DNA of 64,000 nucleotides from an uncultured bacterium. Lineage in GTDB: Bacteria > Patescibacteriota > Minisyncoccia > UBA6257 > GWB1-50-10. The stretch is from assembly GCA_903827975.1 (NCBI GenBank), contig CAIKKG010000001.1, forward strand, positions 26,175 through 90,174, written 5' to 3'. This document shows, in pieces, positions 60,249 through 63,093 of this stretch. Positions within the stretch are counted from its first letter, which is position 1, and every line of letters starts with the position of its first letter. The translations under genes and the position numbers were made by a program. The notes beneath the pieces were generated by a model, which saw nothing but the letters and a program-made list of their open reading frames with translations, had not been told where the DNA came from and made no database searches.

Positions 60249-60689
60249 ATGAGCGACGACATTAAGAAGTTGCGTGAGATGACGGGCGTAGGTGTCATGG
60301 AGTGCAAGAAAGCACTTGATGACGCAGGAGGCGATTTTGATAAGGCAATAGCACTTATTAACGAGAGAGGTATTGCAAGAGCTGATTCAAAAGCACACAG
60401 AACTGCAGGCGCAGGAATGTTGAAGTCATATATTCACAACGGACGCGTAGCAGTCTTGCTACAGATTCACGCAGAGACAGATTTCGTTTTGAAATCAGAT
60501 CCTTTCCAGGAACTAGCACATGATGTAGCAATGCATATTGCTGCAATGAATCCGGATTCAGTGGAAACTCTTCTTACTCAGCCATTCGTAAAGAATGAGT
60601 CAGTTGTCATTGGTGATCTTATAAAAGGCGTAACAGCAAAAGTAGGTGAGAATATTAAGGTAGAGCGTTTCTGCAGATACGAAGTATAA
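60249..60689 (+). CDS. tsf: elongation factor Ts (short single-core form, 146 aa)
   Basis: UBA-like N-terminus (LREMTGVGVMECKKALDDAGGDFDKAIALI) and a single dimerisation core. Confidence 0.8.
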   Translation: MSDDIKKLREMTGVGVMECKKALDDAGGDFDKAIALINERGIARADSKAHRTAGAGMLKSYIHNGRVAVLLQIHAETDFVLKSDPFQELAHDVAMHIAAMNPDSVETLLTQPFVKNESVVIGDLIKGVTAKVGENIKVERFCRYEV

Positions 60690-60711: not shown

Positions 60712-61038
60712 ATGTTCACATTTCTTCTCCAAATTACAATGGTGGTATGTCTCGGTTTTATAGTGTATCTTTTTGGCAGGGTAGTGCCGCGTATTAGCGA
60801 CGCGGATATTGAAAAAGCAAAAGAGCAATCACTATTCCATTGGCTTGTTGGTTATTTCGAACAGGTTGATGTATGGCTTCTCGGGCTTTTCGAAAAGTTC
60901 TTGAGGAGATTTCACGTAGCAATTTTGAAAGTTGATAATGTTGTTACAAAGAAACTTGGACGTTTTAGAAGAGATGCAGATAAGCAGACAGGGTTTGCAG
61001 TTGAGGAGAAGAAGGAGGAAGAGGCTAGTGATAAGTAA
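60712..61038 (+). CDS. hypothetical membrane-anchored protein with an acidic C-terminus
   Basis: N-terminal transmembrane helix; no recognisable motifs. Confidence 0.35.
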   Translation: MFTFLLQITMVVCLGFIVYLFGRVVPRISDADIEKAKEQSLFHWLVGYFEQVDVWLLGLFEKFLRRFHVAILKVDNVVTKKLGRFRRDADKQTGFAVEEKKEEEASDK

Positions 61039-61142
61039 CTAGGAATTGTATAGCGCATACAACTCGTGGTATTGTTGCAGAAGTAAGATTTTTAAAAAAT
61101 ATGCGCAGCCACCGCCTATGGCGGGGTCTCGTCAGAACGAGA

Positions 61143-61192
61143 GTGACAGAGTGGTCAATTGTACCCCGCTGTAAGCGGGGCGCCTTCGAAGG
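61143..61192 (+). other. tRNA-Tyr-like partial element: D-arm identical to the downstream tRNA-Tyr, an anticodon arm with different stem sequence but preserved pairing and GTA anticodon, and a variable-arm-like hairpin; no T-arm or acceptor 3' half
   Basis: GTGACAGAGTGGTCAATTGTA is 21/21 identical to 61441-61461; the stem CCCCG/CGGGG replaces ATAGA/TCTAT around the loop CTGTAAG; CGCCTTCGAAGG resembles the CGCCTTCGGGC variable arm. Confidence 0.5.
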
Positions 61193-61195
61193 AAT

Positions 61196-61444
61196 ATGTG
61201 GTTTGTCTACATTTTAAAAAGTTTGAAGGATGGGCGATATTATATCGGATCAACTTCCGATATTGAAAAGCGAGTAGAGCGCCATAATCATGGGGGTAAC
61301 GTTTCTACAAAAAATCGTAGACCACTTGAATTAGTTTATTTTGAATCATACAATACACGTGTAGATGCTACTCATCGCGAGAGAGTAATAAAGAGCTACA
61401 AAGGCGGCGAGGCGTTTGGCAAATTAGTTAATATGCGCAGGTGA
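61196..61444 (+). CDS. small GIY-YIG nuclease-superfamily protein (UPF0213/YhbQ-like)
   Basis: FVYILKS...GRYYIGSTSDIEKRVERHN matches GIY-x10-YIG plus the conserved Arg and Glu; 82 aa; the stop overlaps the first 10 nt of tRNA-Tyr. Confidence 0.75.
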   Translation: MWFVYILKSLKDGRYYIGSTSDIEKRVERHNHGGNVSTKNRRPLELVYFESYNTRVDATHRERVIKSYKGGEAFGKLVNMRR

Positions 61445-61517
61445 CAGAGTGGTCAATTGTAATAGACTGTAAATCTATCGCCTTCGGGCTACGGAGGTTC
61501 GAATCCTCCCCTGCGCA
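61435..61517 (+). tRNA. tRNA-Tyr (anticodon GTA), type II with a long variable arm
   Basis: GCGCAGG-TG-ACAG-AGTGGTCAA-TTGT-A-ATAGA-CT-GTA-AA-TCTAT-CGCCTTCGGGCTAC-GGAGG-TTCGAAT-CCTCC-CCTGCGC-A. Confidence 0.85.
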
Positions 61518-61526
61518 CAAATATAA

Positions 61527-61556
61527 TAAAAACTTCCTAATCAGGAAGTTTTTATT
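61527..61556 (+). terminator. terminator after tRNA-Tyr (ACTTCCT-AATC-AGGAAGT followed by T5)
   Basis: Perfect 7 bp stem with A5 upstream and a T-run downstream. Confidence 0.55.
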
Positions 61557-61638
61557 ATATCTAGTATTGGAGGATTCGAACCGCGGGCCGCAGTCCCCGA
61601 AGAGGGGACGCAGGTTTCGAGTTCAGTAGAACGAGAGG

Positions 61639-61670
61639 CGAATCCTCCCCTGCGCACAAATGTAATAAAA
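61639..61670 (+). repeat. direct repeat of the tRNA-Tyr 3' end plus trailer (CGAATCCTCCCCTGCGCACAAAT[A/G]TAATAAAA; 31/32 identical to 61500-61531)
   Basis: Exact 23 bp core repeated 139 bp downstream of the original. Confidence 0.6.
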
Positions 61671-61695
61671 CCCCCGCGAAAGCGGGGGTTTGTTA
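61665..61695. terminator. bidirectional terminator (CCCCCGC-GAAA-GCGGGGG)
   Basis: Perfect 7 bp GC hairpin flanked by an A-run and a T-rich run; serves the convergent GH1 gene and the tRNA region. Confidence 0.6.
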
Positions 61696-61704
61696 TTAAA
61701 TAAA

Positions 61705-63093
61705 CTATTTATAATCATTCAGCATTTTTTCCGTAACGCCATTTGCACTAATAATGTCACGATAGAGATATGCGGATTTGCGCACCGTCCGCACATTCGT
61801 GCGAGTATTAACGGCAATCAATCCGAATGCTGAGACATGGAACTTCTCCCACTCGAAATTATCTGCAAGCGTCCAGTAGAAGTAACCAATAATTGGTGAT
61901 GCAGTATTTTTCAACTCTTCGGATACCACATGTAGTTCACGAAGGTGATCAATAATGAATTTGCCACGCAACTTATCGGTTCGGTCACCAATTCCATTTT
62001 CAGTAATGATGATTGGTTTACCGTACTTCTTATATCGCATTGCAAGAAGGCGAATTCCCTCAGGGAAGACAACCATGCCTTCCTCCGTGACTTTTCCTTT
62101 CGGTCTGTGATATGAGGCCGCTATTGGCATGTTATTGCGCCCAGGAGCTATCTCACTATATGCGACGACGCACGGACTGTAATAATTAATTCCGATATAT
62201 TCGACGTGATCACAAAGCGCATCCATCATTGCCCGCCCCTTGGCATCAAGAAGCTCAGCAACACGAACGTCATCGCGATCATTACTATTGCGTGGAATAT
62301 ATAGATGGTCAAAATATGCTACACCAACCTCAGGCTTTATGAACGCAGTATTTAACTCTCGATGAATTTCCTTATAGGCAAGCTTATGAGCGCGAATAAT
62401 ATTCCACTCGGCTCGATTTGCTCCAGCAATGTCCATTTTCTTAAGTGGAGGCCAGAGCCCATTCAGATATCCCATCTCAATAGGAACCATAGGCTCATTG
62501 AATGTCATCCACCGTTTAATTTTTAAAGGGCGCATTTTTGCGGCAACTCGTTTTGCATATATAGAGAAAAGAGCGGGGAAATTTTCGCTTTCAAGTCCAC
62601 CCTTATCAGCAACCCATTTTGGTATGGTAAGGTGATGAAGGTTTATGAGTGGTCGTATTTTCTGACTCTCAATTTCTAAAGCAAGATCATAATAGCGACT
62701 AAGTTCCTTCTCATCCCACAAGCCTTCCTGTGGCTCTACGCGAGCCCACTCAATAGAAAAGCGTAACTCTTGAATTCCAATTTCTCTTGCATGCTTAATG
62801 TCTTCTTTTGTGAGACCTGGGTGAGTGGGGTGAGATTTTTTGTACTTACTCCAAGCATCCCAGTCAGTTTTTCCATTTCCGCCGTCAGTCTGGAATGCAG
62901 ATGTGGCGACACCCCAGGTAAAATTCTCAGAGAAAATAAGATCGTTTTTTGAAGCTTTGTTTTCACGCACCGAGATATTTGGAAGTGATTTAGTAGAATT
63001 GACGCGGCTATGAGAGGGACAATATTTCAGAGGAATAAGAAGAACAAGAACAAGCAAAAGAAAGTGCACTCTTGAGCGGTTGAAGAATTTCAT
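61705..63093 (-). CDS. secreted glycoside hydrolase family 1 enzyme (beta-glucosidase/beta-galactosidase-like)
   Basis: N-terminal signal peptide; GH1 motifs ENFTWGVATSAFQTDGG, catalytic acid/base TFNEP and nucleophile IITENG. Confidence 0.8.
   Translation of the reverse strand: MKFFNRSRVHFLLLVLVLLIPLKYCPSHSRVNSTKSLPNISVRENKASKNDLIFSENFTWGVATSAFQTDGGNGKTDWDAWSKYKKSHPTHPGLTKEDIKHAREIGIQELRFSIEWARVEPQEGLWDEKELSRYYDLALEIESQKIRPLINLHHLTIPKWVADKGGLESENFPALFSIYAKRVAAKMRPLKIKRWMTFNEPMVPIEMGYLNGLWPPLKKMDIAGANRAEWNIIRAHKLAYKEIHRELNTAFIKPEVGVAYFDHLYIPRNSNDRDDVRVAELLDAKGRAMMDALCDHVEYIGINYYSPCVVAYSEIAPGRNNMPIAASYHRPKGKVTEEGMVVFPEGIRLLAMRYKKYGKPIIITENGIGDRTDKLRGKFIIDHLRELHVVSEELKNTASPIIGYFYWTLADNFEWEKFHVSAFGLIAVNTRTNVRTVRKSAYLYRDIISANGVTEKMLNDYK

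Follow-up and report, generated by a model that had tools for sequence, protein, structure and literature searches.

A minimal GIY-YIG nuclease gene among hairpin-remodelled copies of a bacterial tRNA-Tyr gene: a candidate homing-like cassette

We analyzed a 64-kb window of contig CAIKKG010000001.1, from an uncultured bacterium of the Patescibacteriota, in which an intact tRNA-Tyr gene is preceded by an open reading frame (ORF) for a small GIY-YIG nuclease and is accompanied by partial copies of itself, one upstream of the ORF (psi5') and one downstream of the tRNA (psi3'). Coordinates refer to this window and its plus strand. L-numbers denote loci of relatives and of the wider protein family, and P-numbers denote family proteins. 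The locus is laid out as follows.

61098-61108, plus strand: 5' flank AATAT and acceptor 5' strand GCGCAG of psi5', together AATATGCGCAG, an exact 11-nt repeat of 61430-61440
61109-61142, plus strand: 34-nt double-hairpin insert, CCACCGCC-TAT-GGCGGGG and then TCTCG-TCAGAA-CGAGA
61112-61124, plus strand: hairpin CCGCC-TAT-GGCGG inside the 34-nt insert
61127-61142, plus strand: second hairpin of the insert, TCTCG-TCAGAA-CGAGA
61143-61163, plus strand: D-arm copy GTGACAGAGTGGTCAATTGTA, a 21/21 match to tRNA positions 61441-61461
61164-61180, plus strand: GC hairpin CCCCGC-TGTAA-GCGGGG in the position of the anticodon arm
61181-61195, plus strand: variable-arm remnant CGCCTTCG and then AAGGAAT, a putative ribosome-binding site (whole stretch CGCCTTCGAAGGAAT)
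61196-61444, plus strand: GIY-YIG nuclease ORF, 82 amino acids, catalytic domain only (Pfam PF01541)
61435-61518, plus strand: intact tRNA-Tyr (GTA), called by ARAGORN and by Rfam RF00005 (60.5 bits)
61519-61560, plus strand: trailer CAAATATAATAAAA and a perfect 18-bp AT-rich terminator-like hairpin (inverted repeat)
61569-61638, plus strand: psi3' element, T-stem 5' strand, ATTCGAA and a structured 60-nt insert (fold z = -5.6)
61639-61670, plus strand: copy of the tRNA-Tyr 3' end, from T-loop CGAAT to the 3' end, with 14 nt of trailer (CGAATCCTCCCCTGCGCACAAATGTAATAAAA; 31/32 vs 61500-61531)
61668-61691, both strands: bidirectional intrinsic terminator AAACCCCCGC-GAAA-GCGGGGGTTT, common to the convergent GH1 gene

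Most of this layout had been described in the initial annotation, and its structural observations hold. The upstream copy does reuse the tRNA flank and acceptor strand before the 34-nt insert with its CCGCC-TAT-GGCGG hairpin, the D-arm is reproduced exactly, and AAGGA lies 5-9 nt ahead of the ORF's ATG, where it would be placed to act in ribosome binding. The ORF stop (TGA, 61442-61444) falls inside the tRNA, whose 5' end supplies the last codons of the ORF along with the stop, and the tRNA 3' end with its trailer recurs at an offset of 139 nt. Over the 46-nt repeat 61143-61188/61441-61486, the two copies are 76% identical, with mismatches clustered in the anticodon stem; there, CCCCG/CGGGG in psi5' replaces the ATAGA/TCTAT of the tRNA around a retained CTGTAA loop (CTGTAAG vs CTGTAAA). 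Three points had been overlooked. GGAGGATTCGAACC (61569-61582) is a perfect inverted copy of the tRNA T-arm, and 61569-61578 base-pairs with 61639-61648 so as to enclose the structured 60-nt insert; AGAACGAGAG is found in both inserts (61134 and 61628); and neither ARAGORN nor Rfam (E<=10) recognizes the upstream copy as a tRNA. Exact repeats of 21-32 nt inside 900 nt are far beyond chance expectation. The GIY-YIG locus itself is present in a single copy within the window.

Comparison with related genomes, a check that the initial annotation had proposed, revealed occupied and empty sites in the same synteny. The site is occupied in the window, L001-L007, and L088. Proteins that are 70-88% identical sit in the same place, in the order rpsB-tsf-hyp-ORF-tRNA-Tyr (hyp being a hypothetical protein of ~108 amino acids), each with its own remodelled upstream copy. 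Searches with the upstream hyp gene recovered empty sites, where hyp is followed directly by an intact tRNA-Tyr with neither an ORF nor an upstream copy (L169-172, L173, L174/175, L176-178, and L179/180). Occupied L001 and empty L169 are 93.1% identical over 2885 bp, and the excess in L001 consists of 258 unique nt and a 39-nt repeat of tRNA positions -1 to 38. The host flank that L001 shares with L169 continues into the L001 pseudo-copy, whereas in L169 the same flank precedes the intact tRNA. Close relatives therefore differ by gain or loss of the ORF, and exactly the empty site would result if the repeats recombined with each other. Thus, the presence/absence polymorphism expected of free-standing homing genes exists at the tRNA-Tyr site. 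Direct repeats at the locus are also recombinationally active within the species. The 32-nt repeat of the tRNA 3' end is identical at 32/32 positions in conspecific assemblies, and the conspecific L185 is without exactly the 139-bp unit between the repeats, including the AT-rich hairpin, with the repeats collapsed to one. The locus thus contains a second unit, without an ORF, whose ends are a repeated tRNA segment and which itself comes and goes as the repeats recombine.

The association with tRNA genes extends to the whole protein family, which comprises ~8000 protein clusters at 50% identity (E<=1e-10). Two independent scans, one of a species-representative genome collection and one of a metagenome collection, yielded 162 non-redundant loci. 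A tRNA gene called by ARAGORN on the same strand abuts the ORF in 103 of them, and an opposite-strand tRNA occupies the same positions in one. The tRNA starts within ±100 nt of the last conserved codon in 64 loci (median, +10 nt) and ends 0-150 nt before the ATG in 49, with both arrangements in 10, while tRNA density in the far flanks is 0.14/kb. At least 16 tRNA isotypes are involved, in many phyla. Where an intact tRNA lies on exactly one side of the ORF, the opposite side carries a copy of that tRNA in 66 of 87 loci, counted only when it scored above every reversed-sequence control; permissive gapped alignments of the copies had over-aligned and were replaced by this test. Intact tRNAs flank the ORF on both sides in 10 further loci, and tandem [tRNA-trailer-ORF] arrays are common (e.g., L029, L011, L014, L044, and L065). 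An extreme case of tRNA-segment amplification is found in Poribacteria (L046, OY282444.1), where six tandem tRNA-like units with a 107-nt period, called "tRNA-???" by ARAGORN, occupy 1367-1976 directly upstream of a family ORF.

These statistics bear on the possibility that an ordinary tandem duplication of tRNA-Tyr caught an unrelated small gene between its copies, after which the redundant copies decayed passively. Direct repeats of this kind do arise by slippage or unequal crossing-over, those at this locus recombine (L185), and the ORF is frameshifted in most conspecific assemblies. Yet a neutral history would not give the same layout at so many different tRNAs in so many phyla, nor hairpins of one type enriched 15-fold, nor the strong constraint on psi5', nor substitutions that fall in the stems and leave the D-arm identical. 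Such a history is already contradicted by the family statistics, and we regard it as very unlikely. What does fit the family-wide pattern, the empty sites of relatives, and the isotype-linked protein clades is the suggestion in the initial annotation that the locus is the scar of a GIY-YIG-associated mobile insertion, or a tRNA duplication with an intervening insertion.

In a neighbor-joining tree, the proteins cluster by tRNA isotype across phyla. The Glu clade unites Omnitrophota with Planctomycetota and the Cys clade Ignavibacteria with Elusimicrobia; the Ser clade holds Parcubacteria, Gammaproteobacteria, Lentisphaeria, and Omnitrophota, and the Pro clade holds Bacteroidota, WOR-3, Calditrichota, and Poribacteria. 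Between phyla, proteins at the same isotype are 52.7% identical vs 50.2% for different isotypes, a difference reached by none of 2000 label permutations. Shared phylum adds nothing, as pairs from the same phylum at different isotypes are 49.7% identical. The direction of this small effect is the one expected if the tRNA sequence itself were the landing site.

The encoded protein matches Pfam PF01541 at 58.1 bits (cut-off, 22.6; E=1.1e-15) over residues 1-67. The catalytic residues are invariant in a 33-sequence family alignment (Y5, Y16, I17, G18, R26, H30, and E50 are the invariant positions), and the window protein has all of these. A profile search of the PDB returned the UPF0213 structures 1zg2 (7e-14) and 1ywl (2e-11), then SLX1 (8e-6 to 1e-4) and, weakly, I-TevI (8e-4). 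On these similarities, the protein belongs to the Slx1-like/UPF0213 branch of the GIY-YIG superfamily. It is a single domain with no auxiliary domain and no Asn in the invariant or near-invariant columns after E50. The NCBIfam model for group I intron endonucleases scores it at 23 bits vs a cut-off of 56. Seg-type enzymes combine the catalytic domain with a NUMOD or helix-turn-helix DNA-binding domain in ~200 amino acids or more, whereas the window protein has 82 amino acids and the catalytic domain only. Because it has no DNA-binding domain, the window gene does not have the architecture of a free-standing homing endonuclease. The link to homing enzymes and introns drawn in the initial annotation is not supported in two respects: the protein is of the minimal YhbQ/UPF0213/Slx1-like type rather than an I-TevI/Seg enzyme with a DNA-binding domain, and Rfam detected no group I or group II intron in 60900-61800 at E<=10, nor in 20 related loci at gathering score.

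Between species, purifying selection acts on the ORF. The ratio of nonsynonymous to synonymous divergence (dN/dS) is 0.06 for the window vs L001, where synonymous divergence (dS) is 1.06, and 0.10-0.15 for other resolvable pairs. Within the species, a G-run at 61292-61296 has five G in the window and six in the conspecific assemblies L184 (26x coverage), L185, and L186, so that the ORF is frameshifted in three of the four assemblies and the public gene call is a 51-amino-acid fragment. The extra G could be a fixed pseudogene, a slippage polymorphism, or an assembly error in one version; the ORF of L116 is likewise frameshifted. On the established model, homing-type selfish genes keep their function between species and are frequently inactivated within them. 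Selection between species together with frameshifts within them would be the pattern expected of a homing-endonuclease life cycle. The conserved part of the protein ends at the tRNA 5' boundary, and the C-terminal tails are therefore translated tRNA sequence and variable. Many family members have N-terminal extensions of 20-55 amino acids that resemble translated pseudo-tRNA or hairpin sequence (e.g., P0016), and the predicted proteins P0136 (214 amino acids) and P0137 (205 amino acids) contain two tandem GIY-YIG domains, probably by read-through of a tandem [ORF-pseudo-tRNA-ORF] array.

Strong purifying selection would also be expected if the nuclease served the cell in tRNA or DNA metabolism, for instance as a structure-specific enzyme that resolves conflicts where tRNA genes are highly transcribed, or in the quality control of tRNAs. 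Its place in tRNA operons would then serve co-expression, and the duplications would be side effects of its activity. Slx1 is a structure-specific nuclease, relatives in the subfamily occur as fusions with enzymes of tRNA modification (TrmH-like and class I methyltransferase; PMC1564403), and the position of the gene is conserved within the clade. On the other hand, the gene is patchy among close relatives, frameshifted in several lineages, and amplified in tandem [ORF-tRNA] units, and its similarity across phyla tracks isotype rather than host. These are signatures of a dispensable, horizontally moving gene, and a host function of this kind seems to us quite unlikely.

The upstream pseudo-copy is itself conserved. 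The window and L001 match at 27/27 positions of CCCCGCTGTAAGCGGGGCGCCTTCGAA, against a proportion of synonymous differences (pS) of 0.57 in the neighboring ORF, and psi5' folds more stably than shuffled sequences (z = -3.1). Across eight tRNA-Tyr-linked relatives, the hairpin in the anticodon position has 94.5% of its cells paired, with two pairs altered on both sides, and retains its pairing via C-G<->U-A changes. The D-arm of each relative's pseudo-copy bears the tRNA variants of its own genome (GGTAGAGCGG..TTAC in L001 and GGCAGAGCGG..TTGC in L088), which indicates concerted evolution or gene conversion. A foreign origin of the L001 pseudo-copy was considered and set aside, the single T/A difference in its variable loop being too weak. 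Other parts of the copy vary. The 34-nt insert is absent from L001, where CCCCGCTGTAAGCGGGGCGCCTTCGAA is identical; L004 has a CCCCGCAAACGGGG insert and its anticodon arm is replaced by TCCCGC-AAA-GCGGGA; L088 has a pseudo-copy (TCCCGC-TGCAA-GCGGGA) on either side of the ORF, two in all and both before the intact tRNA; and L116, L089, and L003 have two to four GC hairpins within the D-loop. In the best-preserved upstream copies (L042, L045, L084, and L016), which are a minority of loci, the copy runs from position 1 to the T-loop and ends 2-9 nt before the ATG. A T-loop remnant with three or fewer mismatches precedes the ATG in 10 of 52 loci vs 9% of control windows, so that a general rule of upstream copies ending in the T-loop is at most suggested.

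The initial annotation had inferred selection on the RNA structure of psi5' rather than passive decay and had offered, as one option, a tRNA-like leader, with the GTA anticodon kept. The part concerning selection stands, in that psi5' is constrained and its hairpin pairing is kept, but the stems are constrained in sequence and not in pairing alone. A leader that keeps the anticodon is not supported. The hairpin loop varies freely (AAA, TGCAA, CGTA, GCA, or GTG in relatives), and the anticodon is therefore not conserved. Nor is psi5' recognizable as a tRNA. It is without a T-arm and a 3' acceptor strand, and the proposed check with tRNA models returned only the intact tRNA, with no second Rfam tRNA at E<=10 and no ARAGORN call for psi5'.

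The hairpin at 61164-61180 belongs to a type that recurs throughout the family. Hairpins with G/C-only stems occur at 3.52/kb beside ORFs vs 0.24/kb in far flanks, the 15-fold enrichment mentioned above, and are present at 98 of the 162 loci. Their arms are CCCGC, CCCCG, or CCGCC in 131 of 173, a T-run follows only 4 of the 173, and the closing pair is T-A in 59 vs A-T in 4. As read from these sequences, the consensus is (T/C)CCCGCC-loop-GGCGGG(A/G). Next to the GC stems, a comparison meant to separate RNA-level from DNA-level pairing found 16 G.U vs 21 A.C, that is, no excess of G.U. The closing-pair bias and the lack of a G.U excess together imply that the stem is constrained to a particular sequence and that its loop, of 3-9 nt, is free. 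Such constraint is more in keeping with a stem-loop that is recognized than with generic RNA stability or a double-stranded operator of fixed spacing. A C-first orientation, tried as a hallmark of these hairpins, was rejected as non-specific since ordinary terminators in the window share that style; it is the enrichment, the scarce T-runs, and the T-A closing bias that distinguish the hairpins from terminators.

Different arms of the tRNA are remodelled in different lineages. The D-arm is replaced in the Bacteroidota tRNA-Pro clade (GTAG-CCCCGCC-N3-4-GGCGGGG-CA), and at Tyr, Lys, Met, and Gln loci a hairpin takes the place of the anticodon arm; in L084, a TTTTAA loop is retained and the stem is changed compensatorily, exactly the situation of the window. 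Interruptions of the T-loop are seen in L008, L011, L014, L025, and L028, and hairpins are inserted in the D-loop in L016, L059, and L082. Some modules recur between distant loci. The 34-nt insert starts with CCACCGCCTATGGCGGGGTC, and an identical 20-mer lies beside the family ORF at a planctomycete tRNA-Glu locus (L060). A double-hairpin module, CCACCGCC-N3-GGCGGGG-T(CCCGCC..), accompanies family ORFs in other phyla, at loci of tRNA-Ser and tRNA-Glu (L060, L024, L099, L103, L119, L120, and L127). The 19-nt hairpin module CTGCCYGACGGCRGGCRGG occupies the same T-arm position, directly after T-loop AATCC, in a tRNA-Cys pseudo-copy (L074, 1954-1972) and in a tRNA-Tyr-derived element (L179, 2110-2128). 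That these two unrelated genomes share it points to modules being transferred or installed site-specifically.

On the downstream side, psi3' consists of the T-stem 5' strand, ATTCGAA, the structured insert, CGAAT, the T-stem 3' strand, the acceptor 3' strand, and the trailer. This short version (window 61569-61656) is kept in L090/L184, L174, and L004, with four compensatory pairs. A ~150-nt version that starts with the acceptor 5' strand sits downstream of tRNA-Tyr in genomes that have no ORF (L169, 2963-3110; L173, 2947-3085; and L179, 1973-2141). It has the conserved motifs GGATTCGAACGCCGG, GAGGCGGTGCCCAG, and GAGAGGCGAGGGAGAATCC, and 13 of its 43 pairs are compensatory in a comparison of three sequences only. 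The five-part layout of psi5', ORF, tRNA, terminator, and psi3' also exists at the tRNA-Ser loci L111 and L030, and a second tRNA 3' end was found in 12 of 59 evaluable loci vs none in controls. Rfam 15 gave psi3' no family match; apart from genuine tRNAs, it returned just chance-level terminator-like hits, at E<=10 for the window, at E<=5 for L179 and L111, and at gathering score for 20 related loci. Judging from covariation and layout, the tRNA-framed ~150-nt element is a candidate new structured RNA family.

Two further explanations start from psi3'. A 32-nt direct repeat of a tRNA 3' end and trailer is the classic signature of integration into a tRNA gene, and the repeat could be the attL/attR pair of a former island. 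It encloses just 107 unique nt with no integrase; no recombinase gene lies between any of the tRNA-derived repeats, where GIY-YIG is the sole ORF and the 139-bp unit has none. Moreover, relatives keep this structured insert, as do tRNA-Ser loci with a family ORF, and we consider an integrase scar highly improbable. Alternatively, psi5' (61103-61190) and psi3' (61569-61656) might be halves of a second tRNA-Tyr that are rejoined at the RNA level. Both acceptor strands (GCGCAG at the 5' side and CCTGCGC at the 3' side) are present, and the psi3' insert lies between the T-stem strands GGAGG and CCTCC. A split tRNA is nonetheless scarcely credible, given that models of group I/II introns and ribozymes found no match, psi5' has its anticodon arm replaced and in relatives has lost the anticodon, the 3' half is absent from L004, L088, and L185, and a terminator-like hairpin stands between the parts. 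To our knowledge, bacteria also lack the splicing endonuclease system of archaea.

An explanation at the RNA level, in line with the first option of the initial annotation, casts psi5' as the structured leader and psi3' as the structured trailer of a co-transcript of nuclease mRNA and tRNA. The remodelled arms would then set processing sites (RNase P/Z or RNase E/J) or protect ends, and duplication would be the raw material. The hairpin pairing that is preserved with changes on both sides, the many compensatory pairs in the short and long versions of psi3', some of them G-U pairs that are possible on the plus strand alone, the 27/27 conservation of psi5' against saturated synonymous sites, and its stable fold (z = -3.1) are all in keeping with this. 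So is the ORF stop inside the tRNA, which would couple RNase P processing with translation. Against it, the anticodon loop is not conserved, and psi5', without T-arm and 3' acceptor strand, cannot be an RNase P substrate and matches no tRNA or other Rfam model. The position of the hairpins differs by lineage (D-arm, anticodon arm, or T-loop), and their stems are conserved in sequence with no G.U excess. The elements are also dispensable, since L001 is without the 34-nt insert, L185 without psi3', and L004 and L088 without the 3' copy. Presence/absence and isotype-linked clades are left unexplained, and an RNA-level role, which we think rather unlikely as the whole explanation, may hold alongside a mobile element but not in its stead.

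Taken together, our results are probably best explained by a tRNA-Tyr gene that is occupied by a mobile, homing-like minimal GIY-YIG cassette, one that resides in bacterial tRNA genes and leaves one copy of the tRNA intact. According to this mechanism, the nuclease would break or nick a tRNA gene, at a candidate position such as GGTTCGAATCC, and so initiate recombination. Repair would use the tRNA sequence itself as homology. The ORF would be copied in while a tRNA segment is duplicated, always leaving one working tRNA, and later recombination across the repeats would excise the cassette and restore the empty site. The GC-clamp hairpins may be conserved cis elements of the cassette. They could break up the homology of the redundant copy, preventing deletion between the repeats, or abolish its tRNA identity, its processing, or a cleavage site within it. 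Alternatively, they could be the stem-loop recognized by a domain-less, Slx1-like structure-specific nuclease, or stabilize and protect mRNA ends, particularly the 5' end. Most likely, the hairpins either break up homology and tRNA identity or serve as a recognized stem-loop.

Several observations weigh against a homing-like cassette. No biochemical activity or target is known for this small GIY-YIG subfamily, and with no DNA-binding domain, sequence-specific cleavage of a tRNA gene is unexplained. An occupied allele would still offer any target inside the tRNA, in its intact copy. The difference in protein similarity that tracks isotype is small, at 2.5 points, and the T-loop junction, a remnant of T-stem plus TTCG, is visible in just 4-5 of 52 loci. 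The order rpsB-tsf-hyp-ORF-tRNA-Tyr is shared down to 70% protein identity, which means that much of the inheritance is vertical, and absence of the ORF could reflect loss rather than non-invasion. Phage and plasmid collections yielded only distant homologues, and the one context examined, in a Rhizobium phage, was without an adjacent tRNA.

A bolder version of the cassette hypothesis addresses the lack of a DNA-binding domain. The loci may represent an undescribed class of bacterial mobile element in which the conserved stem-loop modules and hairpin-remodelled pseudo-tRNAs, the ~150-nt covarying RNA beside tRNA-Tyr among them, are recognition partners of the nuclease. The stem-loops would be sites where it binds or cleaves DNA or RNA, or else those segments of the pseudo-tRNA transcript that are identical to the tRNA would direct it to the matching tRNA gene. 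We offer this tentatively and think it unlikely; if true, either variant would explain why the cassettes are faithful to an isotype and why copy and tRNA evolve in concert.

The closest experimental analogue appears to be SegB of phages T4 and T6. SegB, a free-standing GIY-YIG homing endonuclease, is encoded among the phage tRNA genes and cuts inside them with a preference for RAWTSGAAC; together with the phage recombination proteins UvsX and UvsY, it is required for tandem amplification of [tRNA-Tyr + segB] (PMC13096335; PMC2330249). By our reading, this preferred motif is the complement of the T-loop box, as is GATTCGAAC, which occurs also at window 61573-61581. The likeness may extend from the GIY-YIG domain, the location among tRNA genes, and the lack of a single-isotype preference across homologues to SegB's cleavage of tRNA genes at a T-loop-box motif, its recombination-dependent amplification of tRNA-Tyr with the nuclease gene, and its selfish, horizontal spread. 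SegB differs in being a phage protein of ~220 amino acids with a C-terminal DNA-binding part, from the I-TevI/Seg lineage, whereas the window protein has 82 amino acids, is of the Slx1/UPF0213 lineage, and belongs to a family of bacterial chromosomes. Hairpin-remodelled pseudo-tRNAs and an ORF stop inside the tRNA are not reported for SegB.

Other known systems share some of these features. UPF0213/YhbQ/YazA proteins (1zg2 and 1ywl; the "Slx1 non-eukaryota" cluster) have the same fold, size, and conserved residues and likewise have no invariant C-terminal Asn and no auxiliary domain. Yet bacterial stand-alone GIY-YIG proteins have been treated as vertically inherited repair candidates (Dunin-Horkawicz et al. 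2006, PMC1564403). They are described as cellular proteins of probable repair or unknown function, mostly vertical, and tRNA nesting, pseudo-tRNA flanks, and mobility are undescribed in the searchable literature. Islands and prophages that integrate into tRNA genes share the insertion site, the direct repeats of tRNA segments, and the preservation of a functional tRNA; the window locus differs in having no integrase, an insert of only ~260 nt, an ORF-side repeat derived from the tRNA 5' part, and a copy remodelled by GC hairpins. Homing genes of group I introns in bacterial tRNAs also place a nuclease gene within a tRNA gene whose function is retained, but the window locus has no ribozyme, and function is retained by duplication rather than splicing. 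In full-text literature searches, whose coverage was incomplete, neither the nesting of small GIY-YIG genes in tRNA genes of bacteria nor pseudo-tRNAs remodelled by hairpins turned up. As a kind, selfish nucleases encoded at tRNA genes are known; for the hairpin and pseudo-tRNA component, there is a real possibility of novelty.

Few bacterial proteins of unknown function are as common as the stand-alone GIY-YIG proteins of ~80-100 amino acids (UPF0213/YhbQ/YazA). The branch described here, at least, seems to live selfishly in tRNA genes, which gives the proteins a testable role. The cassette would account for many of the tRNA fragments, pseudo-tRNAs, and assembly breaks found beside tRNA genes in genomes and metagenome-assembled genomes. 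It would also extend the SegB principle, in which a nuclease drives duplication of a tRNA gene, from phages to bacterial chromosomes. The replacement of tRNA arms by hairpins in a redundant copy is a recurrent phenomenon with no current explanation, and the downstream tRNA-framed RNA may add a new structured family.

Some minor observations concern the surroundings of the locus. A promoter scan upstream of psi5' found no convincing promoter. In that region, window 61046-61060 reads GGAATTGTAT, compared with GCAGAGGGTGGTCAATTGTATCTCGCC at 2862-2885 of the closest relative, L168, whose hyp is 89% identical. This looks like an older, D-arm-like remnant of tRNA-Tyr and suggests repeated rounds of duplication at the site. 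The terminator at 61668-61691 is of the same style as the other intrinsic terminators of the window (19421, 21799, 43370, 44525, 46033, and 57967), which consist of an A-tract, a CCCCCGC-type stem, and a T-tract; the pseudo-tRNA hairpins share the C-first GC stem but are without the A and T tracts. Farther upstream, the Tsf homologue (60249-60689) has just 146 amino acids, and hyp (60712-61038) is a conserved protein of 108 amino acids with no Pfam family and 15 homologues, restricted to the clade. Both are consistent with the reduced genomes of Patescibacteria-like organisms.

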